Shown here: one piece after another, positions 6,030 through 29,458 of the stretch
Numbering within the stretch: the stretch's first letter is position 1
Layout of the letters: the number at the start of each line of letters is the position of its first letter
Source: a virus
Taxonomy: Duplodnaviria > Caudoviricetes
Length of the DNA: 64,000 bases
Strand: one strand, 5' to 3'
Virus record (IMG/VR): IMGVR_UViG_3300036868_000046
Span: 14,783 to 78,782 of that record
The notes under the pieces: model-generated
Database searches by the model: none
What the model was told of the DNA's origin: nothing
The model's input: only the letters and a program-made list of their open reading frames with translations
Made by a program: the position numbers and the translations under genes

Positions 6030-6144
6030 GTCTCAGTCGTCGACTGAGCGCGTCCGGCCAAGAGTCTCAGGCTTGAGCCTGAGCGTTCTCGGGCTGGCGC
6101 CTGAAGCGGCCACATTCCTTCGTCTCAGTCTCAGGTGACTGAGC
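6030..6144 (-). repeat. Cluster 2 of CRISPR-repeat-like hairpins (3 units)
   Basis: gtctcagtc-gtc-gactgagc (6030), gtctcaggc-ttga-gcctgagc (6064), gtctcagtc-tcaggt-gactgagc (6122, overlapping the stop of 6131..6466). Confidence 0.85.
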
Positions 6145-6466
6145 TATCCGATGCGGCGGCGCCCTTCTTGAAGATGGTCTTCCAGATTGCGGCGCTCACC
6201 GGGATGAGCAGCGTCGCGGCGATCTGCAGCCACTTCTGCAGTTCGGCATGCTGGAGCGTGAGGACGCCGGCTCTGAGCTGGTTGATCACGTCCGCTTCCC
6301 ACTGCGTGTAGGGGAGCGTCGGATCGGAGAGCGTGTTCTGCCCAGGGTCGTCGGCGGCGCCGAGCGAGCCGAGGGGGCCCAGCGTACGACGCGGGATCGC
6401 CAGTCCGAAGCTCGTCGACACCCCCGAGAGCGCCCTTGGCCGTCTGTGTGCCTTGCGGTAGTACAT
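6131..6466 (-). CDS. Small virion membrane protein
   Basis: MYYRK leader, LGSLGA motif, C-terminal hydrophobic helix followed by basic residues. Confidence 0.7.
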   Translation of the reverse strand: MYYRKAHRRPRALSGVSTSFGLAIPRRTLGPLGSLGAADDPGQNTLSDPTLPYTQWEADVINQLRAGVLTLQHAELQKWLQIAATLLIPVSAAIWKTIFKKGAAASDSSVT

Positions 6467-6475
6467 GGGAGCCCT

Positions 6476-7090
6476 TCAGTTGGGGACGTTCGGCGACAGC
6501 GAGCCGTAGTCGTCATCGCCGATGATGTCCGACAGGTCGGAGAGGTCGTCGGTCGCGGATGTGGGAGGCGCTGCGGTGGGGGGACGGGGAGAGGGGGTGC
6601 TCATGCGCCCCGCGTCGTAGGCATCGTTGTAGGTGTACTCGTTGGGGTCGTCGGCCACCGGCCGCAGCGCCCGCATCTGGAGATGCGGAAGCCCGAGGTC
6701 GGCGTTCGGGTCCGCGGCCGGCAGCTGGGCGTTCGGGTCCGCGAGCATCCAGCCGAGGGACGGCACGTAGAGCTGGATGAGGTTCTGGATGGCGGCGATC
6801 GCGGCGCCGACCACGATCGGGGTGTGGTACTTCTCGAGCCACTTCCACTTGTGGGCGAGCAGCCACGCGGATAGGAACGCTCCGACGGCCGCAGCCGCGC
6901 CCGCGTGCTTGCCGATCGACGGTGCCCGTTTCGCCACCTGCTCGGTCGCGACCTTGGTGATGAACCGGGTCAGCGCGAACCCGGCGAAGCCGGGCCCGAT
7001 GAACTCGGCCAGGTCGGTCATGAGCGGGGGGTTATGTCGTGGCGCAGCCGCGGCCCTGCCGTATCTGCGCTTGAGCCTGGTTCGAGCCAT
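6476..7090 (-). CDS. Virion membrane/core protein with RHNP motif
   Basis: Basic N-terminus ending RHNP, 2-3 hydrophobic segments, acidic tail. Confidence 0.7.
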   Translation of the reverse strand: MARTRLKRRYGRAAAAPRHNPPLMTDLAEFIGPGFAGFALTRFITKVATEQVAKRAPSIGKHAGAAAAVGAFLSAWLLAHKWKWLEKYHTPIVVGAAIAAIQNLIQLYVPSLGWMLADPNAQLPAADPNADLGLPHLQMRALRPVADDPNEYTYNDAYDAGRMSTPSPRPPTAAPPTSATDDLSDLSDIIGDDDYGSLSPNVPN

Positions 7091-7136
7091 CCCCCCTATC
7101 GTACCCCCAGGACGCCAGGAGGCACAAGGTCGTCGG

Positions 7137-7483: not shown

Positions 7484-7540
7484 GCATCCCTACGGGCCCA
7501 GAGATACCAGCGCGCGCGCCACCTGACAAGCACGATCCGG

Positions 7541-10030
7541 TCAGCCGCCCAGGAGAATGACCTTACCCGGATTGCCGGCGGATCCAGCCACGGATATGCC
7601 GCCGCCCGCAGCACCACCTGCACCTCCGGTCACATCCGTGGTCGGGAACGTCGTGCCGGTGGTCATCGAGATGACCACGTAGCCGCCACCACCACCGCCG
7701 CCACCACCGGAGTTGATCGTCGCGTTGCCCGCGCCGCCGGCGCCGCCTTTGGCGGACACCGTGATGTTCGTCGGGTTCGTGATCTGGCCGGTGATGAGGA
7801 CGACGTAGCCACCGCCCGACCCGCCGCCACCGCCCGACCCACCGACCGCACCGCCGCCGGAGGCGCCGCCGGTGCCGCCGCAGACCGCGGTGGAGGTTGA
7901 AAGGCGCAACCGGGCGGCGGTGGCGCGCACGAAGTTGTTGAGCGAGCCGTTGGTGTCGGGGGAGAGGGTGGGCGCCGTCGATCCGACGCCGCCGGTGAAC
8001 CCCGTGCCTGCGCCGCCAGAGCCACCGAGCCCCGCCTGAAACGACGTGGGCCACTCGCCGGAGACCGGCGCCTGCCCGGTCTGCCCGTTGGATGCAGCAG
8101 GCGCGGAGACGCCGGCGCCCGACGCGGTGACCAGCGTGCCGTTGCCGGTGAACGCCGCACCACCCGCCGCGCTACCGCCGGCGCCGTTGCCGGCCGTGCC
8201 GGGCAGCCCGATCATCTGGATGGTGAGCGTGCCGGAGCTCGGGCCGGCGAGCGTCTTGGCGTAGATCACGAAGCCGCCGGTGTTGATCACCGCCGAGGTC
8301 GTCGCGGAGGCGACCGACCAGTACATGTCGCGGGTCAGGGTGACGGTTCCCGAGAACGTGGTGGCGCCGTCGCTGCCGTCGCCGGCCAGGAGAACCGTGG
8401 ATGGGGCCGAGGTCACGTTGGCGCTCGCGGTGACGGTGGAGCCGTTGAGCCCGAACGAGACGCCGTTCGAGTTCGAGAACACCACCGTGCCCGCTCCCAC
8501 GGATGCCGTGCCGGCGCTGATCGCGACCCCGCCGCCCGGGACCGTGTAGCTGCCGGTGACCGTCGAGCCGTTGAGCCCGAACGAGAGACCGTTGGAGTTC
8601 GAGAACACCACCGTGCCCGCGCCCACCGACGCGGTCCCCGCGCTGATGGCCGCCGGCGCCGTCGACTGCGTGTAGCTCGCGGTGACGGTGGAGCCGTTGA
8701 GGCCGAACGAGACGCCGTTCGAGTTCGAGAACACCACCGTGCCTGCACCGACGGATGCGGCGCCGGCGCTGATCGCCGCCGGTGCGGTGGGCACGGTGTA
8801 GCTGCCGGTGACCGTCGAGCCGTTGAGGCCGAAGGCGAGGCCGTTGGAGTTCGAGAACACGACGGTCCCGGCGCCGACGGATGCGGCGCCGGCGCTGATG
8901 GCGGCTGGGGCGGTCGACTGCGTGTAGCTCGCCGTGATGCGCGTCGAGCCGCTCAGGCCGAACGACACGCCGTTGGAGTTCGAGAACACGATGGTCCCGC
9001 TCGTCGCCGTCTGCGTGCCGGCGGCGATCGCCCCGGGCGCGGTCGACTGCGAGTAGCTCGCCGTGACCGTGGAGCTCGACAGGCCGAACGTGACACCGTT
9101 CGAGTTCGAGAACACCACGACCCCGCTCGTCGCCGTCTGCGTGCCTGCGGCGAGGCCGACGCCCGACGCCGTACCACCGGCGGTCTGCACCGAGGCGGTC
9201 ACCGTGCCGTTGGAGAGGCCGAACGAGACGCCGTTCGAGTTCGAGAACACGACGGTCCCCGCGCTCCGGCTCTGCGTGCCGGCGCTCACCACGAGCGGTG
9301 AGTAGCTCGCCGTCACCGTCGAGTTGCTCATCCCGAACGAGATGCCGTTCGAGTTCGAGAAGTCGACGACGCCGCTCGTCGCCGACTGGGTTCCCGCGCT
9401 GACCGCCACGCCCGCGCTCGTGATGTCCTCGCTGAGCGCCGCGAAGCCGATGTTGACGACGGGGCTTCCGGGGTTGATGGGAGGGACGCCGCTGCGCCGG
9501 ACCCGCATCCAGGCGGCGGCGATCACGCCGGACTGGCCGCCCGGCCCCTGCGAGAACACGAACGGCTGCGCCCAGTCGGTCGTGCCGTCGACCGACACCT
9601 CGACGATGAGCGTCCCGCCGAACGCGCCGCCGACCTGCACCGTCTTGAACAGGCCCAGCACCGCCGTGACGTCCACCGCGGCGCCCGCCCCCGTGCCGGC
9701 CGGCACCGGCAACGAGACGAACGACACGCCCGAGGCCGTGCCGCCGATGTTCACCTGCGACGTGCCACCGAAGGTCGCGTTGAACCCGGACGACCGCACG
9801 CGCATCCAGCGCGCCGCGACCTGGACCGTCGTGGATCCGGAGTTCTGGATGCTCGCGACCGACTGCCACGAGCCGCCCTGCGCGGCGTCGTTGTTGTATT
9901 CGATGTTGATGGTCCGCTGTGCGGTGCCGACCACCACGATGGTCTTGGTCGCACCGAACGCAGAGACGTCCACGGATGCGCCGACGCCGTTGGCCACCGG
10001 GACGGGGAGCGAAACGAACAGGTTGCTCAC
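7541..10030 (-). CDS. Large Gly/Ser/Thr-rich spike or fibre protein with internal repeats
   Basis: GTG start with GGAGG RBS; duplicated N-terminal ~100-aa domain, eight FSNSNG repeats and a Gly-rich C-terminal domain. Confidence 0.8.
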   Translation of the reverse strand: MSNLFVSLPVPVANGVGASVDVSAFGATKTIVVVGTAQRTINIEYNNDAAQGGSWQSVASIQNSGSTTVQVAARWMRVRSSGFNATFGGTSQVNIGGTASGVSFVSLPVPAGTGAGAAVDVTAVLGLFKTVQVGGAFGGTLIVEVSVDGTTDWAQPFVFSQGPGGQSGVIAAAWMRVRRSGVPPINPGSPVVNIGFAALSEDITSAGVAVSAGTQSATSGVVDFSNSNGISFGMSNSTVTASYSPLVVSAGTQSRSAGTVVFSNSNGVSFGLSNGTVTASVQTAGGTASGVGLAAGTQTATSGVVVFSNSNGVTFGLSSSTVTASYSQSTAPGAIAAGTQTATSGTIVFSNSNGVSFGLSGSTRITASYTQSTAPAAISAGAASVGAGTVVFSNSNGLAFGLNGSTVTGSYTVPTAPAAISAGAASVGAGTVVFSNSNGVSFGLNGSTVTASYTQSTAPAAISAGTASVGAGTVVFSNSNGLSFGLNGSTVTGSYTVPGGGVAISAGTASVGAGTVVFSNSNGVSFGLNGSTVTASANVTSAPSTVLLAGDGSDGATTFSGTVTLTRDMYWSVASATTSAVINTGGFVIYAKTLAGPSSGTLTIQMIGLPGTAGNGAGGSAAGGAAFTGNGTLVTASGAGVSAPAASNGQTGQAPVSGEWPTSFQAGLGGSGGAGTGFTGGVGSTAPTLSPDTNGSLNNFVRATAARLRLSTSTAVCGGTGGASGGGAVGGSGGGGGSGGGYVVLITGQITNPTNITVSAKGGAGGAGNATINSGGGGGGGGGYVVISMTTGTTFPTTDVTGGAGGAAGGGISVAGSAGNPGKVILLGG
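8420..9406 (-). repeat. Eight in-frame ~38-45-aa repeats (AISAG..SG/AG.VVFSNSNGVSFGL.GSTVTASY)
   Basis: Directly visible in the translation and the DNA. Confidence 0.9.
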
Positions 10031-10062
10031 GGATATACCTCCACTTGGGCTTTCGGGGCCGT

Positions 10063-11559
10063 CTACCGCCACACGGGGCGGCCGAGCTGCTCGCCCGGCT
10101 CGTCGATGAAGTGGAGGCTTCCGAACGCGTCCTGGATCTCGGAGAGCTCGACCTCGTCCGGGTCCATGTCATCCACGAGGTCGGCGCGCGACAGGTTGAG
10201 GAGCTGCTCGCGGTTCGCGACGAGGAGCTGCTTCTTGAAGTCTTCCAGCGACAGGCCCTGGTAGCCCGGCATGCCTCGGAGCGCGCGCCAGACCGCAGCG
10301 ATGAACACCTTGTCGCTGCCGTAGCGACCCATCGCCCGGCCGCTCGGACCCTTCCGCTCTCGCACCGAGGGCAAGACCGACAGCACTGCCTGCGCCAGAT
10401 CCCCGATCGAATGGGGGGACGCCGTGGCGACGATCGTGCGCGGCACTGGCGGTGGCGATGGCGGCGCAACCGGCGTGTCCACGACGAAGTGATACGTCGC
10501 GATGTCGTCGTAGGTCTCCGACTCGGCGACCTCGTTCGGGTTCATCGCCGCCACGAGATCCGCGCGCGCCAGCACGAGCTGCCGAGCGCGGTGCGCCTTG
10601 GTGAGCTCGTGTTTGAACTCCGGGAAAGCCATCCCGCCCATCCGCGGATCGTTCGCCAGGACGCGCCAGATCGCGCTGATGAACACCTTGCGATCGCCGA
10701 ACCGGCCGCGCCAGCGTCCATCTGGATCGGTCTCGGCGCGGATGGTCGGCATCACGGAGCGAACGATCGCGGCCAGCGCGGCTGGATCGGGTCGCGCGCG
10801 CCGGACCGGAGCTGGAGCTGGAGCCGGCGAGGGCGACAGGACCGCTTCGCGAAACGCCTGGATGCCGGCCGGCTTGGCCAGAAACCTGGCGTTCTCATCC
10901 TTCGCGTCCTCGTTGCCGGTGAAGAACAGGAACCTGTCGACGTACTGCGGGTAGTTGTCGCGCACGTAGTGGAAGAAGTCGATGCCGCTCTTGTCGCCGA
11001 TCACGTCGACGTCCGAGACGATCAGCACCGGCTCGAGGAACCGCAGGTTGCCGATCATGCCGTCGACGTTGTCCGAGACGACGACATGCGCCCCCGGGAT
11101 GATCTTCTTGATCATCCGGGTCGTCGACTTCTGCAGCGCCGGCTCGTCCTCGAGCAAGAGGACCGTGGCCTCCCCCGCGTTGCGCTTGACGGGGTTTGGA
11201 TGGATGCCACCCCGCGGCTCCGCGCCACCCTCCCATCCGACCTCGATGTCGTCGCCCCGGCGTTCGACCTCGACGGTGAACGTCGGGACCGAGATGTCGG
11301 CCCGCGCCGCGGCGTCGACGTAGGAGTCCGGCGCTTCGCCGATCGCGAGCTGGACCAGGCACTCCCCAATGTCCACGCCGCCACCGGCGCGCCGCAGCCG
11401 GTGCGCGACGTCGAGCACGCCCTCGTGGTTGGCGAGCTCGTAGAGGTCGGCCAGCTCTCCAGCCGCCTCCACGATGGCCTTGGGCGCCCGACCGACGCCT
11501 CCGATCTGGTCACGCCAGATCGCGGCGGCCATCTCCAGGATGAGTGCCTGTCGCGTCAT
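10063..11559 (-). CDS. Multidomain protein: response-regulator receiver (REC) domain plus two tandem helical repeat domains
   Basis: VLLLEDEP...LIVSDVDV...FLFFTG...FLAKP receiver motifs; duplicated G(R)FG.KVFI.A.WR...F.K.L..A.R...L.L.RADLV..M.P.EV..SE domain. Confidence 0.75.
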   Translation of the reverse strand: MTRQALILEMAAAIWRDQIGGVGRAPKAIVEAAGELADLYELANHEGVLDVAHRLRRAGGGVDIGECLVQLAIGEAPDSYVDAAARADISVPTFTVEVERRGDDIEVGWEGGAEPRGGIHPNPVKRNAGEATVLLLEDEPALQKSTTRMIKKIIPGAHVVVSDNVDGMIGNLRFLEPVLIVSDVDVIGDKSGIDFFHYVRDNYPQYVDRFLFFTGNEDAKDENARFLAKPAGIQAFREAVLSPSPAPAPAPVRRARPDPAALAAIVRSVMPTIRAETDPDGRWRGRFGDRKVFISAIWRVLANDPRMGGMAFPEFKHELTKAHRARQLVLARADLVAAMNPNEVAESETYDDIATYHFVVDTPVAPPSPPPVPRTIVATASPHSIGDLAQAVLSVLPSVRERKGPSGRAMGRYGSDKVFIAAVWRALRGMPGYQGLSLEDFKKQLLVANREQLLNLSRADLVDDMDPDEVELSEIQDAFGSLHFIDEPGEQLGRPVWR

Positions 11560-11562
11560 GCC

Positions 11563-12063
11563 TCAGGCATCCCGGGCGCGGTTGTCCTCGATGACGAGCC
11601 GCTTCTTGCAGAGCGTGGCGCCGGTGTGCACCTGGCCCTGCACGTGCGCGGCGCGCCCCGCCTCCCAGGTGCACTGGAACGGCTCGATCGAGATCCGCCC
11701 GATGGAGGCGATCTCGACCAGCTCGCGCGCGCCCGCGACCGCAATGCGCTGGCGCATCGGGTTGAGCGCATGCGGCGCGAAGTCGATCGCCTTGCGGTCT
11801 CCCCGGACGGTCAGAAGCTTCTGGCAGCCGGGGCAGACCAGGTGGACCTTGAGCGGTTCACCCGGGATCGCGTAGACGTCGAGCGTCAGGAACGTGTCCT
11901 TGTAGACGACCACGACCTCCTGCTTGCTCGAGGGCCCGGCCGCGCCCAGAAGCCCAGGGTGACCTTCCGGGCCCGGGGCATCGCCGGCCAGCTGCACGCA
12001 CTGCCGGCTCGTCCCGAGCAGCGACTGCACCTGGGGGTCCTGTAGGTCGATGGTGACTGTCAC
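11563..12063 (-). CDS. Hypothetical protein with CxxC
   Basis: GTG overlaps the upstream stop; VCPGCQK. Confidence 0.6.
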   Translation of the reverse strand: MTVTIDLQDPQVQSLLGTSRQCVQLAGDAPGPEGHPGLLGAAGPSSKQEVVVVYKDTFLTLDVYAIPGEPLKVHLVCPGCQKLLTVRGDRKAIDFAPHALNPMRQRIAVAGARELVEIASIGRISIEPFQCTWEAGRAAHVQGQVHTGATLCKKRLVIEDNRARDA

Positions 12064-12323
12064 GACGCCGGCTTTCTGCGCAGGAGGATGAACGCGATGG
12101 CGGCCACCGCGGCGCCACCGATGACCAGGGTGCTCGTGCTGATGCCCTGGGCATTCAGCGCCGTCTGGAGGTCCCGGTTGGCCTGGTCGGCGGCGCCCGC
12201 CTGGCGCTGGCCCGAGCCGTAGAACCGCAGGACGGATCCGACGCCCCCCAGAATGTCGTCCCAGGTGCTGCCGAAGCCGGAGTAGCCGGCCCGGCTGATG
12301 AGGGTGTCCTTGACGTACGGCAT
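12060..12323 (-). CDS. Small virion membrane protein
   Basis: GGAGG RBS; MPYVK leader, SGFGS motif, C-terminal TM followed by RRK. Confidence 0.7.
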   Translation of the reverse strand: MPYVKDTLISRAGYSGFGSTWDDILGGVGSVLRFYGSGQRQAGAADQANRDLQTALNAQGISTSTLVIGGAAVAAIAFILLRRKPAS

Positions 12324-12328
12324 GGAGA

Positions 12329-12688
12329 TCACCTCCGCGTGAGGAGCACGACGAGCAGCACGGCGCCGCCGGCGAGCGCGATCTTGGTGGTCGTCGACAT
12401 GCCCGGCGCGGCGACCGGCGGCGCCGTGGGCGCCGGCGGCGACAGGATGGCGCCGATCGCCGAGCCGAGCCGATCCCAGGTCGATGGGCAGCGACCTGCG
12501 CCGTTCGGGTCACCGTACGTCGATCCGTCCGCGTTGAACGTCACGTAGCCGCCGTCGGTGGTCGCGCAGTAGTTGCCGGGCTGCCGGTACGAGTCACAGG
12601 CCGGGATCGAGGCGCACGGCGTCTCGTCGGTGAACGTGGTGCCGAGGCCCAGGAGCGCGGGGCGCCTGTACTTGTTGTAATACGCCAT
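12329..12688 (-). CDS. Small virion membrane protein
   Basis: MAYYNKY leader, LLGLGT motif, Cys-containing ectodomain, C-terminal TM followed by RR. Confidence 0.7.
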   Translation of the reverse strand: MAYYNKYRRPALLGLGTTFTDETPCASIPACDSYRQPGNYCATTDGGYVTFNADGSTYGDPNGAGRCPSTWDRLGSAIGAILSPPAPTAPPVAAPGMSTTTKIALAGGAVLLVVLLTRR

Positions 12689-12689
12689 C

Positions 12690-13034
12690 TTATCGACCCT
12701 TCTTCGTGAGCAGATAATACGCCAGTCCGCCGCCGGCCACGAGCAGAAGCAGCGATCCGGCGCCGCCGGACTCGGTCGGCGGGGTGGTCGAGGTCGACGT
12801 CGAGCTCGAGTCCGGGAAGAACAGATCCCGGAGCTCGTTGAACCAGGGTTGGTCGTCCGGCGGCGCGCAGACCTGCCCCGGGCGCCGCCAGGGCGAATCG
12901 GCCGGCAGCTCCGAGCAGTCGACGCGGTTCGGCCCCGTCGACCCGACGATCGTGCTTCCGCCGTCGTCGAACGTGCCATCGTCCTGACCTGGGTGGGTGA
13001 CCGGGCCATCGCCCATCGGGCGGATGTAGCTCAT
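12690..13034 (-). CDS. Small virion membrane protein
   Basis: MSYIRPMGD leader, C-terminal TM followed by KKGR. Confidence 0.7.
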   Translation of the reverse strand: MSYIRPMGDGPVTHPGQDDGTFDDGGSTIVGSTGPNRVDCSELPADSPWRRPGQVCAPPDDQPWFNELRDLFFPDSSSTSTSTTPPTESGGAGSLLLLVAGGGLAYYLLTKKGR

Positions 13035-13528
13035 GACGTCCTCCGCAAGAGCAAGTAGCCCACGACGGCCGCCCCGCCGAGGAGGAGCACGGTCTGCAGG
13101 GGGAACCCGCTGTCCCCCGATCCGTCGGGCAGATCCACCGGGGGCGGTGGTGGCCCGGAGGCCACGGTCGGCGGGCGCTGGACCGGCGCCGATCCGCCAC
13201 CGCCCCCTCCACCGCCACCCGAGGACGTGGCCGGCGGCGTGCTGGCCGGCGGTGGTGGCGTGGTCGCCGGTGGCGTGGTCGCCGGCGGAGCTTGCGCCGC
13301 GATGGACTGGGCGAGCTGGCCGCTCAAGTTCCGCGCCGCGCCCCAGATGCCGCCGCTCAGGCGGCGATCGGGGCCCGGCCGAACCGGCACAGGCGTCGGG
13401 GCCGGCGTGGACCCGGGGCGCGTCGGAACCCGCGCGGGCGTGGACCCGGGGCGCATCGGTACGGACGCGCCGCCCGGTAGCCGAACCTGCGACCAGAGTC
13501 CCAGCGCTCTGTGCTTGACGTACGACAT
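13031..13528 (-). CDS. Pro/Gly-rich virion membrane protein
   Basis: MSYVKHRALG leader, C-terminal TM followed by RR. Confidence 0.7.
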   Translation of the reverse strand: MSYVKHRALGLWSQVRLPGGASVPMRPGSTPARVPTRPGSTPAPTPVPVRPGPDRRLSGGIWGAARNLSGQLAQSIAAQAPPATTPPATTPPPPASTPPATSSGGGGGGGGGSAPVQRPPTVASGPPPPPVDLPDGSGDSGFPLQTVLLLGGAAVVGYLLLRRTS

Positions 13529-13839
13529 CAGCGCCGCCCGCGGTGGCCTCCACCGCCGTGGTGGTGCCGCCCCCCGCCTCCGCCCCCGCGCCAGTTCGGG
13601 CGGAAGCCAGAGCCCCAGCCGGGTTGCCAGAACTCGACCGGGCCGTAATCGACCACGTCCGGCTCGTCGAGCTCCGGCGCCGCTGCCTGGGCGGTCAGCG
13701 GCTGCATGACCGGACCACCGCTCTGGTTCACCGTCGAGGCGCCGCTCGATTGCCCGGTCGACGCATCGTCCTTCTTCCGGATGAAGAAGTACCAGACGGC
13801 GATGCCGCCGCCGATCCACAGAAGGGTCGAGTTCTTCAT
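13528..13839 (-). CDS. Small membrane protein with N-terminal TM and Gly/His/Arg tail
   Basis: LLWIGGGIAVWYFFIRKK; coupled to its neighbours. Confidence 0.65.
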   Translation of the reverse strand: MKNSTLLWIGGGIAVWYFFIRKKDDASTGQSSGASTVNQSGGPVMQPLTAQAAAPELDEPDVVDYGPVEFWQPGWGSGFRPNWRGGGGGGRHHHGGGGHRGRR

Positions 13840-14189
13840 TTGGCCGCCTGTCCTTTCGCGATCTCGTAGCCGATCCACATCGGCAGCCCGATAGCGACCG
13901 CGATGATCGTGGGTAGCACCCAGACGTGCTCTTGAGAGTACACGTAGGCGCGGAGCGCCGGCACCGCGCGGCGAAGGCCGATGCCGCCCGTCTGGCTCGG
14001 ATCGTCGGGCGTCTCGTTGCAAGCCGCCGGGGTCTCGCCGCGGTCGATCGACTTGAGCTGGCCGACGCGGCACACGACCTCGTTGAGGTACGGATCGGCC
14101 AGGATGTCGGAGGCGGCGCCGATGACGCCGCCGATGTCACCCATGCCTGCCCGGATCGGGCGACGGCGGCGAGTCCTGCCATACGACAT
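13836..14189 (-). CDS. Small virion membrane protein
   Basis: MSYGR...RAGMGDIGG leader, C-terminal TM. Confidence 0.7.
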   Translation of the reverse strand: MSYGRTRRRRPIRAGMGDIGGVIGAASDILADPYLNEVVCRVGQLKSIDRGETPAACNETPDDPSQTGGIGLRRAVPALRAYVYSQEHVWVLPTIIAVAIGLPMWIGYEIAKGQAAK

Positions 14190-14806: not shown

Positions 14807-14810
14807 TGGC

Positions 14811-18383: not shown

Positions 18384-18854
18384 TCAACCCTTTCCGTGTG
18401 GCGGCCGTCGAGTGGACGCCAGGCGGTCGTAGAACCGTTCCAGAACCGTGCCAATCTTCTCGTTCGCGTCGGCAGCCGTGCGGCTGATGAACTCCATGTT
18501 GGCCGTGTACTCGCGCCGCGCCGTGTTCTCGTTCTCGCGCGCCGCCTCGAAGATCTCGCGGATCGTCGTGATGTGGTCCTGCAGCGCCTGGCGGTGCTTG
18601 GCCTCGAACTCGAGCCGCAGCTCGTTCGCGATCTCCTCGCGCGAGCCCGAGAGCTGCGCGCGATCGACCGCCCACTGCGCGCGCTCCTTCGCGACCTCGG
18701 CGTCGTGCTTCTGCCGGTCAGTGTCGAGCTCCGCAATCCGGTTCGTGAAGTGGCGAAACAGGTAGGCGATCACCCCCGCCAGGGCCGTGATTGCAAAGAG
18801 CAGCGCGGCGACGAGGTTGTTCGGGATCCCATCCGCGGATGGGGGTTCAACCAT
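18384..18854 (-). CDS. Protein with N-terminal TM and coiled coil
   Basis: LVAALLFAITALAGVIAYLF followed by a heptad-rich region. Confidence 0.65.
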   Translation of the reverse strand: MVEPPSADGIPNNLVAALLFAITALAGVIAYLFRHFTNRIAELDTDRQKHDAEVAKERAQWAVDRAQLSGSREEIANELRLEFEAKHRQALQDHITTIREIFEAARENENTARREYTANMEFISRTAADANEKIGTVLERFYDRLASTRRPPHGKG

Positions 18855-19350
18855 CGATACCTCGACCGAACACACCGAGCCCACCGCCCCAGATCATCGC
18901 GAGCACCTGCTTGCGCGACTGGATGATCAGCAGGCACTTCCCGTCGGGGGTCGTGTACAGATCTGGATAGGGCTCACGCGACTCCGCTACGACCTTCTTC
19001 CCATCGACGTCCTCGAACGCGAATCCAAGGCTCTGCCCCAGCCGGGTCAACGCCGGCACGTCCCGGAACCGGGCCGGGACTTCGACGCGCGGACCGTCTC
19101 CATCCGCCGTGTAGCAGACGACCCCCGCATCGTGCTCGTGGATGTAGTCGACCGGCCGCTTTGGCTTGCGCAGCGTCGCCGGATCCACCTTGCCGGAGCG
19201 ATAGGTCACATGGAGGTTGCGGCCGGCGCGGTTCAGGTGCGTGGGGATCCGGAACGACGCGGGGAACTCGCCGATGCGGCGCGGCTCGTAGCGATGGAAC
19301 TCGACGTACTTGTCGACGGCCTCCTCGGCCTCTTCGGGGATGCGCTTCAC
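18847..19350 (-). CDS. Hypothetical virion-operon protein
   Basis: GGATGAGG RBS, YVEFH and YIHEH motifs, coupled within the operon. Confidence 0.65.
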   Translation of the reverse strand: MKRIPEEAEEAVDKYVEFHRYEPRRIGEFPASFRIPTHLNRAGRNLHVTYRSGKVDPATLRKPKRPVDYIHEHDAGVVCYTADGDGPRVEVPARFRDVPALTRLGQSLGFAFEDVDGKKVVAESREPYPDLYTTPDGKCLLIIQSRKQVLAMIWGGGLGVFGRGIDG

Positions 19351-19354
19351 CGCC

Positions 19355-20032
19355 TCATCCTTTCGGCTTCAGAAACTTGAACGCGATGAGCGCGCCGATC
19401 GCCGCCAGACCGACCCACTTGTACTTGTCGTACAGCTCGGGCAGCGACGCCGCCACCTTCAGAACGTCCTCGCCCACGAGCAGCGCCGTCGCGCCGATCG
19501 CCTTCACCGCGGTCCAGGCGACCTCGAACCCGCTCTGAAACGCCGACAGTGCGCTCAACCACCAGGGATTCAGGCATGCCGCCACCGAGGCGGTCTGCAT
19601 CGCGTCGGCGCCAGTCTGCAGCGAGGTGATGACCCATTGCTTGAACCCCGGCGCGTTGACGAGTCGGATCCCAGATTGCTGGGCCTGCTGCGCGGCGTGC
19701 GTGTAGTCGAGCGACCGCTGCCCCACGGCGAAGAGGCTATCCGCCGCGGCGTGCAGATCATCGCCGGCGGTCGTGAGATCGGCGAGCACCTGGTCGATGG
19801 TCCCCTGCGCCTTGACCACCGCCGCCATCACCGTGGTGACCCCCGACAAGAGCTCGTCGGGCGTATAGAACCCGGTCGTGTTCCAGTTGTTCGACAGGTC
19901 GTCGATCTTGTCGCGCAGCGGCGCGAGCGTGGCCGTCGCCTGCTGCTGGCACTGCTGGCGCTCCCAGTACTGCGGATCCATCCAGTTCCCGTCGGGCACG
20001 TCCGCCATCGATCCACGCTTCATGTAGGTCAT
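19355..20032 (-). CDS. Helical virion membrane protein
   Basis: MTYMKR leader, amphipathic helices, C-terminal TM followed by KFLKPKG. Confidence 0.7.
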   Translation of the reverse strand: MTYMKRGSMADVPDGNWMDPQYWERQQCQQQATATLAPLRDKIDDLSNNWNTTGFYTPDELLSGVTTVMAAVVKAQGTIDQVLADLTTAGDDLHAAADSLFAVGQRSLDYTHAAQQAQQSGIRLVNAPGFKQWVITSLQTGADAMQTASVAACLNPWWLSALSAFQSGFEVAWTAVKAIGATALLVGEDVLKVAASLPELYDKYKWVGLAAIGALIAFKFLKPKG

Positions 20033-20337
20033 CGCAGCACCTTCCAGGCGACCAGCGCGATCGCTCCGTAGAGCAGCAGGCTACTCGGATCCGAGAACAG
20101 GTCCGCGCCATCCAGGCTGGCGATGCGACCCTGGGGGAGCTCGCCGCTCCCCACCTTCTTGGCCCCCAGCGGCAGCTTCCAGGCAGCACGCGTCGGCGGC
20201 GCCCCCTGCGGACGCCCGTCATCGCCGAGCACCTCGCGCGGACGCGGCGGAGATCCGGCGTGCGTGCCACCCGGCCCAGGTCCGTCGTAGTAGTCGTAGA
20301 CCCGGCGCGTGTAGTCGTATACGGAGTACCGACCCAT
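20029..20337 (-). CDS. Small virion membrane protein
   Basis: MGRYSVY leader, VLGDD motif, C-terminal TM. Confidence 0.7.
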   Translation of the reverse strand: MGRYSVYDYTRRVYDYYDGPGPGGTHAGSPPRPREVLGDDGRPQGAPPTRAAWKLPLGAKKVGSGELPQGRIASLDGADLFSDPSSLLLYGAIALVAWKVLR

Positions 20338-20723
20338 CACCGCCGCTTCTTTTTGAACAGGAACTTCCAGGCGAGGAACGCCCCGACCCCGAGCGTCACG
20401 TAGCCCCCGGGCACCGAGTCCGCGATGTCCGACAGCGCCGCCGACGCCGACCCCGTCTGACAACCGCACGTGCCCGAGCACGAGCAGTTCGCCCCCAGAC
20501 CGGACATCGCCGCGCGCGTGACGCCGATCGGCTCGGGCGCCCCCGGCCGCGGCAAGAGCGAGCTGCCCTCGAGCGTGGAGCCCTGGAGGCTCGTGCCCGA
20601 GAGCGTGCCGCCTGACAGGGATCCGAGCGCCACCGTATCGGCCGCGCGTGATTGGTGGGGGACGTTGCGCTGCCAGCTGAGCAGCGGCGCCCCACCCCGT
20701 TGATAGGCGAACTTCATGGACAT
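20337..20723 (-). CDS. Small virion membrane protein with CxCxxxCxC
   Basis: MSGLGANCSCSGTCGC, C-terminal TM followed by KKKRR. Confidence 0.7.
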   Translation of the reverse strand: MSMKFAYQRGGAPLLSWQRNVPHQSRAADTVALGSLSGGTLSGTSLQGSTLEGSSLLPRPGAPEPIGVTRAAMSGLGANCSCSGTCGCQTGSASAALSDIADSVPGGYVTLGVGAFLAWKFLFKKKRR

Positions 20724-20956
20724 TGCCTCTTCTGGCCGAAGCCTTGGGCCACCGAGATCGGGACCGCGACCACCGGCACGAGCCGCCCCGCCAGGCCGTA
20801 GAACATCGCCCAGAGGATGGAGCCCGTCCGGCGATAGCCGTGGAACGTGAGCGCGATCGCCGATGCCGTCTTCACGCTCGGCGACGTCGCGATGTCATGA
20901 AGGTTGAAAGACGACGTGGTGGTCGTCCCATCCCCCAGCTGCTGGCGGGTGTACAT
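20723..20956 (-). CDS. Small virion membrane protein
   Basis: MYTRQQLGD leader, hydrophobic C-terminal half. Confidence 0.65.
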
Positions 20957-21600
20957 CACTTCCTCTTCTTGCTCTTGCGGAGCACCAAGTAGCCGATCGT
21001 CCCTGCCACCCCCAGAATTGCCAGCTTCTCGACCGGGCCCAGGGTGGCGAACGCGCCGATCGCGCCGGCGTCCGGCGAGGCCACCGTCTTGCCGCTCTTG
21101 GTCACGATGGTGGGCACCGTGATCGCCAGCGGGCCCGACACCTCGGCCGGGGCCCCTAGCGAGTTGGCCAGCGCCATCACCTGCGCCGCCAGCACGTCGA
21201 CGTCCGGCGCCACCCCCATGCAGCTCGAGGTGTCGCCCATGACCGAGCCGCTCGCGATGCCCTGCACCTGGTGAAGGAGCGCCAGCGTCTTGGGCCCCAC
21301 CGCGCCGTCCGTCACGATCTTGCCCCACCCGCGAACCTGCGCCACCCGGTTGAGCTGCCCCTGGAACGCGCGCACGGCGTTGAGCGCGGGGAAGTTCTTC
21401 GCCTTGCACACCCCGCCGATGCTCGAGAAATCGTCCGCGGACGTCGTGGTGCCGCTCGCGGTCTGGTTCACCGCGTCATCGGGCTCTGCGTCCTCGGGCG
21501 CCAGGATGCCCATCCCGAAGTAGTCGAGAACCGATGCCCACCACGGTTGCCCATCGTCGCCGAGCGACTGGTAGACCACCGGAGTCCTCGTGTAGGTCAT
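20956..21600 (-). CDS. Membrane-anchored peptidoglycan-binding-domain protein
   Basis: VRAFQGQLN...TDGAVGPKTLALL (PG_binding_1-like); SLGDD leader; C-terminal TM followed by KSKKRK. Confidence 0.7.
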   Translation of the reverse strand: MTYTRTPVVYQSLGDDGQPWWASVLDYFGMGILAPEDAEPDDAVNQTASGTTTSADDFSSIGGVCKAKNFPALNAVRAFQGQLNRVAQVRGWGKIVTDGAVGPKTLALLHQVQGIASGSVMGDTSSCMGVAPDVDVLAAQVMALANSLGAPAEVSGPLAITVPTIVTKSGKTVASPDAGAIGAFATLGPVEKLAILGVAGTIGYLVLRKSKKRK

Positions 21601-22046
21601 GGCTTGGTCTTCTTCCAGAAGTGGTAGGCCACGATGCCGGCAATGGCGTAGGTCAAGAGACCACCCGGAACGTCGGGCAGGAACCCCAGGCCGCTGGTCG
21701 CCATCGGCGCCGAGTCATCTGGTACGCCCGAGGACAGCCGACGTCCCTGATCGCGCGCCGCCAGGACCGCCACGATGTTGTCTGCCCACGACATGCGCTC
21801 CCAGTCCGGTCCGACGATCTGCCGCAACGCAGATGCCGTAGGCGGGTCCAGGTGGCCGCTGTTGGGCACGCTGGTCGCGCCCATCCGGTAGAGCTCGCGC
21901 TGCAGCTGTCGCACGAGCAGGATGATCTGCGCCGACTTCGGATCCGTCGTCGCGGGAGCGATCATCATGTACGGGATGATCATCGTCGCGCTAAAATCGC
22001 CGATGCCGAGCGACGTCAGAAGGTTGCGTGATGTGACCTCGCTCAT
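21597..22046 (-). CDS. Membrane-anchored protein with PG-binding-like helical domain
   Basis: VRQLQRELYRMG...SGHLDPPTASAL; C-terminal TM followed by KKTKP. Confidence 0.6.
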   Translation of the reverse strand: MSEVTSRNLLTSLGIGDFSATMIIPYMMIAPATTDPKSAQIILLVRQLQRELYRMGATSVPNSGHLDPPTASALRQIVGPDWERMSWADNIVAVLAARDQGRRLSSGVPDDSAPMATSGLGFLPDVPGGLLTYAIAGIVAYHFWKKTKP

Positions 22047-23785
22047 GGCTCCGACCTCTTCCGCGAAGAGAGCAGGATCGCGACCGCCGCGACGGCGCCC
22101 CCTGCGATGAGTAGGGTCGTCGTCAAGGACGACGACGAGGGCGGCGGGACCGGCGCCGGCGGGCGCTGACCGCACGCCTGTTGCGCGAGCGCTGCCCCCG
22201 CCGCGCCCACCTGAGGGGGCGCGCCCGCGGCAGTCGCCGCCGCGGCCGACGCGGCCTGTCCTTGCTGACCACTCAGCGTGCTGTTCAGGACGTCGCACGC
22301 GAGGTCGGCCAGGTCCCGCACCGTGTCCACCACGGCATTGCGCACCGGCATCACCACCGTCGCCGGGATCTGGACCAGCGTGTTCCAGATCGACCCCAAG
22401 ACGCCCGGATCCGGGATCCTCGACAGCCAGACCTTCAACGCCAGCGGATTGGTCGCCGAGCCGACCTGGTACGGGTCGATCGGGTCGAGCATGACGTGCA
22501 TGACCAGGTCTTCGTTCGTCGTCGGATGCTTGGTGCGAACGAGCGGATCGATGCCGGTCAGGAGGTACCACAGGGTGTGCTGCCGGACCGGCGTGTCCAT
22601 CGTGATGCCCATCGCGTCGAACCAGTTCCCCCAGTCCGGCGACGAGCCCTTGCCCTCCTGCGCGATCATGTGCGGATACGTGGTGCCGACGTCCGTCTTC
22701 CCAGCAGCGTCGTGGGCCTCGACGAGCCGGTCGTGAAGCCATCCAAGGACGTCCGCATCGACCGGCCGCATGACGACATTCGCCGAGGTCGTCGTTGGCC
22801 GCCAGTTCGGATCGGGCGATGGATACATGAGGTCTGGGGTGCGGCCAGGGCCCGCCGAGCTCGTGGACCCACCGAACGCCCAGACCCGGTTCTGGAGCCG
22901 GTCATCGAACTGGAACGGCCCGACGTAGAACGCGCCGGTCGGGCGGTTGTCCCGCACCTCGGTCTGCGACGGGTCGACCGTCGCGGCGCCGGGTGGCGCC
23001 CCGCTCGCGCAGAACGGCACGTCCTGCGCGCCTGCCATGGTCCGGGTCCAGTGACCCGGAATTCCCGCGGAACCGTAGACCCAGGAGAACCCGGGGCTCG
23101 ATTGGCAATCCGCGGTATCTCCCAGAACTGCCATGCAGCCATAGCACCCCAGGCCCAGGAGAGATTTTGCCTGGGGTGCCGCGCGTCGCAGACCCGTGTT
23201 GATGACCTCGGCCGCAAGCCCCGTCGACATCGCGCGGCTGATCGCGAGCGGCATGGCCTGGCCGGGGTTCATGCCCTGCGCGATGTACCGCTTCCAGATG
23301 TCCTGCGTCCTCGTCCAGAGGGAGCGGTCGATCTTGTCCATGATCTGCTTGAGCGCATCCTGCCGCTTCTTGGGCGGGACGCTCTTGACCCTGGACAGGA
23401 TGATCTGCGCCGCGCGCTGGCCGTAGTCCTCGTAGGGCGCCGGCAGCTCCGCGTCGCCGAACGCCGAGAGCATCGTGATCTCCCGACCGCCGCCCGGCAT
23501 CCGCGCCGAGCGCACCACCTGCGGATGCTGGTTGAGCCAGTGCGGGATGCGCGGCCCGGCGTACGTCCCACCGGGCGCCCACTTCGTGGTGTAGGTCCCC
23601 TGGCCGTAGCCTTCGTCCATCACGTATTGCGGCACCACGTAGCCGCCCGTCCCGACGTCGGGGTCGTCGTAGGTGCCCCGGGGCACCTGCTTGGTCACGA
23701 ACGCCCGGCGCTCGAGGCCCTCCTCGTCGACGTTGCCCGGAAGGCAGTACCCTGGGTCCCAGGGCTTTGGCAGGTTGTAGGCCAT
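22043..23785 (-). CDS. Large virion membrane-anchored protein
   Basis: MAYNL leader, internal FGD/LGD motifs, C-terminal TM followed by RKR. Confidence 0.7.
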   Translation of the reverse strand: MAYNLPKPWDPGYCLPGNVDEEGLERRAFVTKQVPRGTYDDPDVGTGGYVVPQYVMDEGYGQGTYTTKWAPGGTYAGPRIPHWLNQHPQVVRSARMPGGGREITMLSAFGDAELPAPYEDYGQRAAQIILSRVKSVPPKKRQDALKQIMDKIDRSLWTRTQDIWKRYIAQGMNPGQAMPLAISRAMSTGLAAEVINTGLRRAAPQAKSLLGLGCYGCMAVLGDTADCQSSPGFSWVYGSAGIPGHWTRTMAGAQDVPFCASGAPPGAATVDPSQTEVRDNRPTGAFYVGPFQFDDRLQNRVWAFGGSTSSAGPGRTPDLMYPSPDPNWRPTTTSANVVMRPVDADVLGWLHDRLVEAHDAAGKTDVGTTYPHMIAQEGKGSSPDWGNWFDAMGITMDTPVRQHTLWYLLTGIDPLVRTKHPTTNEDLVMHVMLDPIDPYQVGSATNPLALKVWLSRIPDPGVLGSIWNTLVQIPATVVMPVRNAVVDTVRDLADLACDVLNSTLSGQQGQAASAAAATAAGAPPQVGAAGAALAQQACGQRPPAPVPPPSSSSLTTTLLIAGGAVAAVAILLSSRKRSEP

Positions 23786-23796
23786 GTAGGTTCCCT

Positions 23797-24411
23797 TCAG
23801 GCTGCGATGGGCCAGGAGGACGAGTTCTTGATACGAGACAGCATCTGCGAGGTCTTCTCCGCGGCCACCGGATCGAGCACGATCATGCAGCGCGTGCGCG
23901 GCTCCATCGCACGCGTAAATACGTGCGAATACTGGACTTGGCCGTTGTAGACCATGTTTTGAAAGGCGCAAGTCACAAACTCCGCCCGTCCACCCACCGC
24001 CGTCACCGCCGCCGCCAGCCAGGTCGCCATGTCATCGCAGTCGAGCGATGGGCGGTGACCGGCGAGGATCTGCTGGCTGATGATGTAGGGCGCTCGCACG
24101 AGCTCCGTACGACGCGGGTCGCGCATGTACCGCGTGCGCTGCAGGAGGAAGTGGTAGAGCGCCTGGTACTCGCTCATGTAGTCCTTCGAGTCGAGCCACT
24201 CGCACACGCTCTCGGCGAGCTGCCGCGTCGCGAAGCTGTTCGCGTCGTCGAGCACCGCCTTGCGCATCACCGCGATGGTCTGCGGCGCCCCGTTGTAGCC
24301 GACCCGGCTCGTCGGCACCTGGTCGGGGGTCCAGAACATCCGCGCCCGCCCGTACCCCATGCCGGAGAGCGGGGGAATCGGAGAGCGGGCGGGGTGTCGA
24401 TGGCGGATCAC
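23797..24411 (-). CDS. Transglutaminase-fold cysteine protease (candidate virion maturation protease)
   Basis: Cys-His-Asp triad motifs LDCDD, YSHVF and VLDP; YMRDP...ELV upstream motif. Confidence 0.75.
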   Translation of the reverse strand: MIRHRHPARSPIPPLSGMGYGRARMFWTPDQVPTSRVGYNGAPQTIAVMRKAVLDDANSFATRQLAESVCEWLDSKDYMSEYQALYHFLLQRTRYMRDPRRTELVRAPYIISQQILAGHRPSLDCDDMATWLAAAVTAVGGRAEFVTCAFQNMVYNGQVQYSHVFTRAMEPRTRCMIVLDPVAAEKTSQMLSRIKNSSSWPIAA

Positions 24412-24462
24412 GAGACGACTGTCCTTGGCTGGACGACATCTCGGACCTCGTTCACCGACCCG

Positions 24463-26184
24463 TCATCCGGTGCCGGTGAGCACCTCTCCCACCTTGCGAA
24501 GCCAGTTCTTGCCAGCCTGCGACATGAGGGGTGAGGTACCAGGCAATTTTGCCACCTTGCTCATGAACAAGTCAATGCCGTGCTCCTGAACCCACCCCAT
24601 GACCTCCACCGGCATGTGTGGCCTGGCGCTCTGGGCCACGATCTCCGGCTCCATCCGGTTGGAGAACGCGTTCTCCAGCAGCGACAGCATGGTCTTGATG
24701 GTGTCCGGTTCGATGGCGGGCACCTCGATCTGTGCCCCCTCGCTGGTCGTGACGATCTTGGGCTTGCGCCGCGCCGGCACGACCTGGTTGCCCACCTGGA
24801 TGAACTTCTGCCCGCTCTGGTCCTGCACGACCCGCGGACGCATCGTCGCGGGGTTCTGCATCATGCCCTCGGGCATGCCCGGCTGGCCGCCGCCCACGCC
24901 GGGAATGCGGCTGATGATCTTGCCGATGCCCTCGACGGCCGTGGGGCTCGTGAACGCCTCGACCACCTTGTCGATGCCGGACTTCTCGCCATCGCTCGAC
25001 CCGATCAGGTCCTTGAGCTTCTCGACCTCCTCGATCGAGTCGATGATCGATTTCTCCTTCTTCTCGCGGAGCTCCTTCACGTCCTGCCTGAGCTCCGTGT
25101 TGTCGCGGGTCAGCCGATCGATCTCGGCCTTGAGCGTGTGCGCCTGGACCTCCGCCGTCGTCTTCGCGGCGCTGAACGCTGTCTCGTGCGACAGCCGCAT
25201 CGCCGCGATCTCGCGCTCGTAGCTCATCTTGATCGACGCCGCGGCGTCATCGTGCGAGCGCCGCATGGCCTCGATCGTTCGGTCGTGGCGATCCTCGATG
25301 CGCTTGATGTCCTGCGTGAAGCCTTCCCGGAGCTGGCGGAGCTCGGATTCGTGCTGCGCGCGGAGCGCCGTCAGGCGGGCGCTGTCGCCCGTCATGAGCG
25401 TGTCCAGCATCTTGTCCCGGAACGGGTCGTCCGGCGGCTTCTGGTTGCGCAGCGCCGCGTTCTCGGTCTGGACCGCGTCGAGCTGACGTCGCAGCGCGGC
25501 CATCGCCTCGCGGTTCTGCTCGAACATCATCCGGATCGCGGGATCGATCTCCCGATCTGGCGGGCGCTCGTTCTTGATCTTGAGCTGCTCGGCCATCAAG
25601 TTGAACGCCGCCTTGGCGATGGTCGGTTCCTCATGGCTCATCGTCGGCGCGACGGTGGTCGGCTCGGCGGTCAGCGGAAGATGGTCGAGCCGCGGGTCCC
25701 CGGCGATGGTCAGGTGGCGATGGTTGACGAACTTCCACGAGCCGCGCTCGTTCTGGCGCATCACCTTGATGTGGTACTTGCCGCCGCCGAATTCCCTCTG
25801 GATCTGATCCTCGTCGGGAAACTCGTCGTAGCTGCGCAGGTGACCCTCGGTCGAGACGTCCTGCCCCGTCTTGGGGTTGCGCAGGTGCTTTGGCTCGGTC
25901 CGTCGCAACGCCACGCGAAAGACGCCGCCATCCGCGCTGAGGACCTGCAGCCAGTCACGCAGACCGGACTCCTCCTCGTCGCGAATGCGCTTCATGTTCG
26001 GCGACAGCTTCTCGCGGGCCGGCTCCTTGGCCGTCGGCGGAGCCGCCGGCGGAGGCGTCGTCTCCGCCGGCGCGTCCGGCACCGACTCGAGCGCGGTCTC
26101 CGAGTCAGGGACGGAGCTCGGCTCCGGCTCGTCGTCTGGCGGCTCGACGGGCTGCTCGACCTGCTTGACGGTGGCGCGCTTCAC
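24463..26184 (-). CDS. Large coiled-coil protein (possible scaffold or assembly factor)
   Basis: Pro/acidic N-terminus, long heptad region, helical C-terminal domain. Confidence 0.65.
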   Translation of the reverse strand: MKRATVKQVEQPVEPPDDEPEPSSVPDSETALESVPDAPAETTPPPAAPPTAKEPAREKLSPNMKRIRDEEESGLRDWLQVLSADGGVFRVALRRTEPKHLRNPKTGQDVSTEGHLRSYDEFPDEDQIQREFGGGKYHIKVMRQNERGSWKFVNHRHLTIAGDPRLDHLPLTAEPTTVAPTMSHEEPTIAKAAFNLMAEQLKIKNERPPDREIDPAIRMMFEQNREAMAALRRQLDAVQTENAALRNQKPPDDPFRDKMLDTLMTGDSARLTALRAQHESELRQLREGFTQDIKRIEDRHDRTIEAMRRSHDDAAASIKMSYEREIAAMRLSHETAFSAAKTTAEVQAHTLKAEIDRLTRDNTELRQDVKELREKKEKSIIDSIEEVEKLKDLIGSSDGEKSGIDKVVEAFTSPTAVEGIGKIISRIPGVGGGQPGMPEGMMQNPATMRPRVVQDQSGQKFIQVGNQVVPARRKPKIVTTSEGAQIEVPAIEPDTIKTMLSLLENAFSNRMEPEIVAQSARPHMPVEVMGWVQEHGIDLFMSKVAKLPGTSPLMSQAGKNWLRKVGEVLTGTG

Positions 26185-26633
26185 GGTCCCTCGTCTTCGT
26201 CGTCCTCGGGATCTTCTTCGTCGTCCTCTTGGGGCTCCTCTTCCTCTTCGGACTCCGCCCCCTCTTCGGGCTCATCGAGCGTGATGTCCTCGAGCAGAGA
26301 CTCGGCCTTGGACGCCAGGTCCATCCAGACGCCCACCGCGGCGACCGCCTGGGGGTCGTGCGCCACGCGTTTCTTGAGGTCGAGCATGAGCGCCCGGCCG
26401 GACACGATGAGCGCGGCGAACACGGCCGCACTGTCCGCGTGCAACACGTCCTCGCTGCCCTCGGCGAGCGCCGCGATCGTCGCGTCGATGTCGTCGATCT
26501 CTTCGAGCATCGACCCCACGAAGGGGAGAAGCTCGTCGGCAAGGAACTGCCGGACGTCCGAGGCGGGCACGAGCGGCCCATTGGGTAGCCGCGCGACCAC
26601 GGCTGCGAAATCGGTCTTGAGTTGGTCAATCAT
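26181..26633 (-). CDS. Hypothetical protein with poly-acidic tail
   Basis: GGAG RBS; tail EEEEEPQEDDEEDPEDDEDEGP. Confidence 0.65.
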   Translation of the reverse strand: MIDQLKTDFAAVVARLPNGPLVPASDVRQFLADELLPFVGSMLEEIDDIDATIAALAEGSEDVLHADSAAVFAALIVSGRALMLDLKKRVAHDPQAVAAVGVWMDLASKAESLLEDITLDEPEEGAESEEEEEPQEDDEEDPEDDEDEGP

Positions 26634-28577: not shown

Positions 28578-28588
28578 AGAACCTCGCA

Positions 28589-28936: not shown

Positions 28937-28943
28937 TCAGGAG

Positions 28944-29441: not shown

Positions 29442-29458
29442 TAAAGAGGAAGTCAACG

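Follow-up and report, generated by a model that had tools for sequence, protein, structure and literature searches.

A probable virion-assembly operon with two single-jelly-roll proteins in an uncultivated 79-kb double-stranded DNA virus

What kind of particle is encoded by an operon that combines two adjacent genes for β-rich proteins of about 200 residues with a series of genes for small membrane proteins? The question is raised by the viral record IMGVR_UViG_3300036868_000046 of IMG/VR, which is 78,782 bp long and of which bases 14783–78782, a 64-kb stretch of DNA, form the window analyzed here. An earlier note on the window had read positions 6131–26633 as part of a large temperate virus with an internal membrane and with paired capsid proteins resembling those of Sphaerolipoviridae and P23-77. 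The analysis of the complete genome indicates that the segment 6131–27121 on the minus strand is probably the virion-assembly operon of an uncultivated bacterial double-stranded DNA virus, and that the particle is most likely tailless and icosahedral, its protein shell lined by a lipid membrane. The genes that bear most directly on this reading are the following:

16003..16578, minus strand: MCP1, a 191-residue single jelly roll, candidate main hexamer-forming capsid protein
15284..15904, minus strand: MCP2, 206 residues, a helix (residues 3–34) and a single jelly roll, candidate for a second capsid protein or for the penton
16688..18151, minus strand: protamine-like core protein, 487 residues, isoelectric point (pI) 12.0, with an Arg- and Lys-rich N-terminal part of about 300 residues

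Two candidate capsid proteins

The two adjacent β-rich proteins singled out in the earlier note are products of real genes, and their structure models are single jelly rolls. MCP1 and MCP2 have a third-position GC content of 0.90–0.92 and are separated by 98 nt, and their starts are backed by the lengths of homologues and the positions of Shine–Dalgarno sequences. Both proteins are soluble, with neither a signal peptide nor a transmembrane (TM) segment. Searched exhaustively with HMMER, a set of 1.84 billion representatives contained 271 MCP1 clusters at E ≤ 1e-3. The homologues, 630 of MCP1 and 531 of MCP2, are all unnamed, and many are encoded on contigs of 64–104 kb. No sequence similarity between MCP1 and MCP2 was detected in a test for paralogy, MCP1 has no match in INPHARED phages or PLSDB plasmids, and profile searches of both families against the sequences of the PDB yielded nothing relevant.

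The structures of MCP1 and MCP2, and of these two proteins only, were modelled with AlphaFold2 from family alignments. The MCP1 model (pLDDT 88.5, pTM 0.82) is a single jelly roll, and in the MCP2 model (pLDDT 83.6) a β-sandwich follows the N-terminal helix. The closest structural match of both models is a capsid protein of the archaeal virus SPV1, followed by those of P23-77, HHIV-2, SH1, and HCIV-1, and the best matches to shell proteins span almost the entire jelly-roll domain of each model. The corresponding SPV1 protein is labelled VP4 in BFVD, whereas the PDB chain 6oj0_A is counted here simply as an SPV1 capsid protein. Foldseek searches against the PDB returned weak jelly-roll matches only, which for MCP1 were SPV1, SH1, PRD1-type P3, and small plant and satellite viruses, and for MCP2 were phage cement proteins, SPV1, SH1, HHIV-2, and HCIV-1. 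Nothing in BFVD matched below an E-value of 1e-3. With regard to the prokaryotic Bamfordvirae, such as Tectiviridae and Corticoviridae, the P3 proteins of PRD1 and PR772 occur as weak Foldseek matches only, and the long MCP1 homologues contain one jelly roll with insertions. According to the models, MCP1 and MCP2 are single jelly rolls of the viral type, and the nearest solved structures are those of capsid proteins from viruses with internal membranes.

MCP1 homologues of 290–482 residues consist of one jelly roll with insertions of 100–240 residues at two fixed positions, and others of about 285–313 residues are extended at the N-terminus; fusions with the MCP2 family were not seen. The surface towers of upright jelly-roll capsid proteins arise by loop insertions of this kind, and the pattern seen in the MCP1 sequences fits shell proteins.

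The plus strand of the genome contains one further MCP1-like gene outside the operon, with a second candidate next to it. Gene 64 (41604–42248) encodes a diverged MCP1 paralogue with an internal insertion (E 3e-12 with a profile built without this gene), and the match of gene 65 (42262–42822) to the MCP1 family is marginal (E 0.068 against a profile that excludes it). Counterparts of the two genes were not found in G002, an 88.7-kb contig from a related virus. MCP1 is also flanked by RNA hairpins, whose z-scores of only −1.5 and −2.2 led to their not being used as evidence.

Membrane-anchored proteins and a basic core protein

The operon at 6131–27121 is a single tightly packed unit of 29 genes. 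It comprises genes 9–36 and an additional gene missed in the calling (21597–22046, 149 residues), which sits inside a longer spurious open reading frame (ORF) in an apparent 442-nt operon gap. The start at position 6131 proposed in the earlier note is correct, but the proposed end at 26633 falls one gene short. Because the GC content of the window is 61–72%, genes were called by third-position GC, which resulted in 103 genes for the window and a further 27 for the 14.8 kb that precede it. Profile scans were run with Pfam on about 70 proteins and with PHROGs on 20, which together cover every called protein of at least 140 residues, and no operon protein had a match above threshold.

The small TM proteins, the basic core protein, and the spike-like gene that the earlier note placed around the capsid genes are all present. 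Ten operon proteins are C-terminally anchored with a short basic tail according to a strict hydropathy rule, and about 15, roughly half of the operon, are anchored if weaker C-terminal segments are included. This number of membrane-anchored proteins suggests that the virion contains an internal membrane. Thirteen proteins start with M-x-Y, and in many of them [LMVI]-G-[DAGS] occurs in the next 20 or so residues. The core protein contains five YRRNP repeats, two hydrophobic segments (residues 324–370), and an acidic C-terminal part that is 56% identical in G002.

The arrangement is conserved among relatives. G002 has operon genes 11–36 in the same order, while most of its flanking genes differ. 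The jelly-roll genes are the most conserved of the genome in this comparison; identity to G002 is 77% for MCP1, 69% for the Cys enzyme listed below, which is the second most conserved gene, and 63% for MCP2. The order of the Arg-rich pI-12 protein, MCP1, and MCP2 is kept in all eight close relatives, in which the basic protein encoded directly upstream of MCP1 is 436–548 residues long and contains 16–22% Arg. More distant relatives of MCP1 show the same gene order, with a gene of about 204 residues followed by one of about 215 residues, and no informative families. The other genes of the operon are:

6131..7090, minus strand: the last two operon genes (111 and 204 residues), both with hydrophobic segments
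7541..10030, minus strand: 829-residue spike or fibre candidate, judged from its sequence only, repeat-rich with a Gly-rich C-terminus
10063..12063, minus strand: 498-residue protein and 166-residue Cys-containing protein (sequence, Pfam)
12060..15287, minus strand: eight small membrane proteins of 90–205 residues, mostly with a C-terminal TM segment and basic tail (hydropathy, motif scan)
18384..19350, minus strand: two proteins of about 166 residues, one with an N-terminal TM segment and coiled coil, one soluble
19355..23785, minus strand: seven more C-terminally anchored proteins, including that of 21597–22046 and a 580-residue protein (22043–23785)
23797..24360, minus strand: 187-residue transglutaminase-core-like Cys enzyme (ESM Atlas features), candidate maturation or processing enzyme
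24463..27121, minus strand: operon head with a 573-residue coiled-coil protein, a 150-residue acidic protein, and a 163-residue Cys/His-rich protein (sequence; order conserved in G002)

Several of the eight small membrane proteins begin with M-S/A-Y-x-K/R; they have no Pfam or PHROG family and are partly conserved in G002, in which the order of the seven further anchored proteins is fully conserved. Two anchored proteins have weak peptidoglycan-binding-like matches, at 21597–22046 (PG_binding_1, E 0.0036) and at 20956–21600 (PHROG). The 829-residue protein has two similar N-terminal domains of about 95 residues, followed by approximately ten Ser/Gly/Thr repeats of about 33 residues. Neither the whole protein nor its parts match Pfam or PHROGs, and its N-terminal 200 or so residues are 50% identical in G002. 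The Cys enzyme, without a direct match in Pfam or PHROGs, has an ESM Atlas feature score of 0.97 to clusters in which 65–66% of members belong to PF01841, and ten of its ten best named matches agree. The acidic protein at 26181–26633 has a pI of 4.1 and a poly-Asp/Glu tail, and the ESM Atlas neighbours of the coiled-coil protein are unnamed viral proteins only. The pair at 18384..19350 matches no family in Pfam or PHROGs and shows 30% and 51% identity in G002, and the product of 6476–7090 is 47% identical to a protein encoded at another place in that genome. The 498-residue protein (10063–11559, minus strand) has a weak, sub-cut-off match to a CheY-like receiver (Response_reg, E 4.8e-4), which is odd in a virion module, and an internally duplicated C-terminal domain of about 110 residues.

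The closest analogue, and the working model adopted here, is SPV1 of the Portogloboviridae. The capsid of SPV1 is built from hexameric VP4 and pentameric VP10 capsomers, both of them single jelly rolls; its inner membrane is shaped by many sub-capsomer proteins, its core consists of DNA wrapped by VP1, and it carries mini-CRISPR arrays (PMC8459092). It has no packaging ATPase and occupies a basal position in the branch of single-jelly-roll capsids (PMC8812541). The virus described here resembles SPV1 in its two candidate capsid proteins, modelled as single jelly rolls, in the many small membrane proteins, which in SPV1 belong to a virion with an internal membrane, and in the lack of a virus-encoded packaging ATPase. 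The DNA of the SPV1 core is condensed by a viral protein, for which the Arg-rich pI-12 protein is the candidate counterpart. The two viruses differ in that SPV1 has a 20-kb genome and a hyperthermophilic archaeal host, as opposed to 78.8 kb and bacterial lysis genes here, and there is no similarity in sequence. Further differences are the predicted form of the core protein, which is long, Arg-repeat-containing, and membrane-anchored, and the presence of an integrase and a ParB-like gene.

By analogy with SPV1, MCP1 would form the hexameric shell capsomers and MCP2 the pentons or a second type of capsomer. The C-terminally anchored proteins would reside in the viral membrane, with their N-terminal domains directed towards the shell, as in the sub-capsomer proteins of SPV1, and their basic tails towards the DNA. 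The Arg-rich protein may condense the genome and, with its hydrophobic segments, provide a tether to the membrane. The shell and membrane would then close around a pre-condensed core, and hence no pump would be needed, as has been proposed for SPV1. The acidic protein could chaperone the basic core protein, and the 573-residue coiled-coil protein is a candidate scaffold. Processing of the shared N-terminal tag may fall to the transglutaminase-like enzyme, and the 829-residue repeat protein may be a vertex spike. Entry may be aided by virion proteins that have peptidoglycan-binding or lytic domains; such virion-borne cell-wall enzymes are suggested by the weak peptidoglycan-binding matches in the two anchored proteins together with a Peptidase_M23 gene in the operon of a relative. 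Release may be mediated by a GH25 muramidase with a PG_binding_1 domain (45769–46608; Pfam).

For core and maturation, adenoviruses provide an analogy only: the Arg-rich, putatively DNA-condensing protein and the Cys enzyme with a predicted papain/transglutaminase fold in the late operon resemble adenovirus protein VII and adenain, and a short N-terminal motif that contains Gly is common to many of the predicted virion proteins. The adenovirus hexon is a double jelly roll, and adenoviruses differ further in lacking a membrane and possessing a packaging ATPase.

Proposed packaging without a recognizable motor, and alternative explanations

Genes for a terminase, a portal, an HK97 capsid, or a tail were not seen in the earlier note, and the same holds for the whole genome: none of the called proteins was assigned by Pfam or PHROGs to a family of any of these four kinds, nor to a polymerase or helicase family. 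Six-frame profile searches, which are independent of gene calls, found Terminase_6N, TerL_ATPase, and Phage_capsid to be absent from the genome and from four complete relatives. The FtsK/HerA-type packaging ATPase that the earlier note had proposed to look for was not found: DUF87/HerA and FtsK_SpoIIIE are absent from the genome and from three complete relatives in the same type of search. Positive controls responded in each of these five family searches. A six-frame scan of all 78,782 bp revealed no Walker A motif in any real gene, and the few isolated motif matches are chance-like.

The result is a complete 79-kb double-stranded DNA genome without any P-loop NTPase, be it a helicase, primase-helicase, terminase, or partition ATPase, in which no DNA polymerase was found either. 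The replication of the virus must depend almost wholly on the host.

A HerA-like gene is present in two relatives, at L030:104-2188 on the minus strand, which corresponds to approximately 37.9–40.0 kb of G002:C2, and at G001:C411:14973-15881. The 694-residue protein of G002 contains a P-loop domain that weakly matches the HerA/DUF87/Zot type, along with a coiled coil and three repeats resembling winged helix-turn-helix domains. It has no counterpart in the genome analyzed here (best tblastn E 0.93) and is absent from six near-complete IMG/VR relatives. It was considered as the packaging motor of the group and rejected, since it is missing from these genomes and is encoded about 20 kb from the capsid genes. 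The gene is regarded as accessory, perhaps with a role in partition or DNA translocation.

Among the alternative explanations, it is unlikely that the virus is a true member of the Helvetiavirae, with pseudo-hexameric capsomers based on heterodimers and DNA pumped into a preformed, membrane-lined procapsid. The likeness to Sphaerolipoviridae and P23-77 claimed in the earlier note holds for the fold and the gene pairing, because two single-jelly-roll capsid genes, as judged from the models, stand side by side here as they do in Helvetiavirae. However, the families of this group share an FtsK/HerA-type packaging ATPase in the morphogenesis module, which is missing from the complete genome and its complete relatives, and SPV1 is the better structural match for both proteins, neither of which has sequence similarity to Helvetiavirae. 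The members, namely P23-77 of the Matshushitaviridae, SH1, HHIV-2, and HCIV-1 of the Sphaerolipoviridae, and the Simuloviridae, have genomes of 16–31 kb and haloarchaeal or Thermus hosts, and the present genome is 2.5 to 5 times the size of any of them. No member of the Helvetiavirae is known to have a protamine-like core protein.

It is slightly more doubtful still that the operon belongs to an enveloped or pleomorphic virus or to a vesicle-forming element without an icosahedral shell, in which the jelly rolls would be matrix, DNA-chaperone, or receptor-binding proteins. Both proteins are soluble and lack signal peptides and TM segments, they match shell proteins best and over nearly the full domain, and their homologues display loop insertions of the shell type. 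Known pleomorphic viruses are small and are not known to have such jelly-roll proteins.

A very divergent tailed phage, in which the HK97 capsid, portal, and terminase escape the profiles and the jelly rolls are parts of decorations, cement, or fibres, is highly improbable given that the large terminase characteristic of Caudoviricetes is missing, with no P-loop in any real gene and with terminase and HK97 families absent from five complete genomes in all six frames, that about 80 proteins matched no structural family in Pfam or PHROGs, that tailed phages do not encode late operons of this type, in which some 15 membrane-anchored proteins accompany a protamine-like one, and that the jelly-roll genes are the most conserved of the genome.

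Several points weigh against a tailless particle with a jelly-roll shell and an internal membrane. The virus is known here from its genes alone, and the packaging of 79 kb without a motor has no precedent, because the genome of SPV1 is 20 kb. Since only MCP1 and MCP2 were modelled, the other unnamed proteins leave some room for an HK97-like or portal-like fold. Cement, fibre, and non-viral jelly rolls also appear in the lists of structure matches, in lower positions, and the HerA-like ATPase found in two of nine related viral contigs retains some claim to a role in the group.

Genome, relatives, and host

The IMG/VR record is rated 100% complete by CheckV with direct terminal repeats, and an exact 125-bp direct terminal repeat was confirmed at the genome ends, which indicates that the map is circular or terminally redundant. 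With 78,782 bp, the element is indeed larger than 64 kb, as the earlier note had it. Seven related contigs were found in IMG/VR, six of 75–86 kb (five with terminal repeats) and a 22.9-kb fragment, and two additional virus-sized relatives are located in bins of metagenome-assembled genomes (MAGs). The close relatives have overall lengths of 75–89 kb. No description of such a bacterial virus group was found in the literature, which is not proof that none exists. It is possible, although somewhat short of probable, that these genomes represent an undescribed and widespread lineage of bacterial viruses with genomes of 75–89 kb, at the rank of a family or well above, which would hold about 80 kb of double-stranded DNA in SPV1-like particles with a jelly-roll shell, a membrane, and a protamine-condensed core, and would use no packaging motor.

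Three relatives deserve separate description. In IMGVR_UViG_3300019360_000002 (L029:9127-10555), MCP1 appears to be split into an N-terminal piece of 45 residues and a C-terminal piece of 152 residues, which are about 830 bp apart with a 226-residue ORF between them; an intron or another mobile insertion is possible. Contig G284:C16 from a Myxococcota MAG (83,222 bp, 74% GC) has at approximately 26462–29588 a gene remotely similar to MCP1 (E 7e-10), with a gene for a 512-residue basic protein before it, a 233-residue gene after it, and a giant ORF of 2,622 residues nearby, and may come from a distantly related lineage of such viruses. The close relative JAWVHA010000553.1 (104,011 bp) carries the Peptidase_M23 gene in its virion operon (L038:17574-18206) and, upstream of the gene for the core protein, one that is RadC-like; the contig exceeds the length of the virus and might include host flanks.

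Other genes of the genome are consistent with a viral setting, among them a GH25 lysin, Dam, and DUF5131. The plus-strand block at 42860–45194, conserved with 39–52% identity in G002, encodes a transglycosylase-like protein (PHROG 12507, E 5.5e-4) anchored by a C-terminal TM segment, together with a 263-residue protein that also starts with M-S-Y, which may be additional virion proteins encoded outside the main operon. Two type II hammerhead ribozymes (28945–29014 and 29374–29446, plus strand), scoring above the Rfam gathering threshold, are located at the start of the divergent plus-strand operon. With CRISPR-Cas12m also carried by these genomes, the group looks to have much unusual biology.

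The GH25 muramidase with its PG_binding_1 domain points to a bacterial host. The earlier note had favoured a diderm host such as Myxococcota, on the basis of Cys-rich lipoproteins and a HAMP sensor. One Cys-rich protein has a clear lipobox (gene 37274–37582), and the HAMP match is below the Pfam cut-off (E 0.0024). One relative was binned in a Myxococcales MAG and another in a ‘Peribacteria’ MAG, and only four of the 401 sampled Myxococcota genomes contain a match, all on short or virus-sized contigs. The CRISPR-spacer-like matches in the 401 genomes are only compositional, to repeats rich in Gly, Arg, and Pro. Myxococcota are a weak lead as hosts.

The integrase and the ParB gene reported earlier are both present: the match of the tyrosine integrase is strong (E 1e-15), and the gene is conserved in G002, while that of the ParB-like gene is moderate (PHROG 1033, E 1.2e-9). 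A temperate lifestyle, as first proposed, is plausible from these two genes, but no integrated copy was found among the related contigs examined, all of which are free and virus-sized. The virus could equally well be carried as an episome, as Simuloviridae are.

The prokaryotic viruses known to combine jelly-roll capsid proteins with an internal membrane have genomes of about 10–31 kb, and the type without a motor, represented by SPV1, is known from a single genus of hyperthermophilic archaea only. The architecture proposed here is of a known kind; its combination with a bacterial host, a genome of 75–89 kb, a protamine-like core protein anchored in the membrane, and no packaging ATPase is not described in the sources searched. 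If the proposal is correct, the archaeal portogloboviruses would gain their first counterpart in bacteria, and no other prokaryotic virus with a jelly-roll capsid and an internal membrane would come near it in size, which would enlarge genome size in this part of the virosphere several-fold. It would bear on the debated origin of the kingdoms of jelly-roll viruses, SPV1 being basal in the single-jelly-roll branch (PMC8812541), and would pose the physical question of how 80 kb of DNA enters a membrane and a shell without an ATPase.

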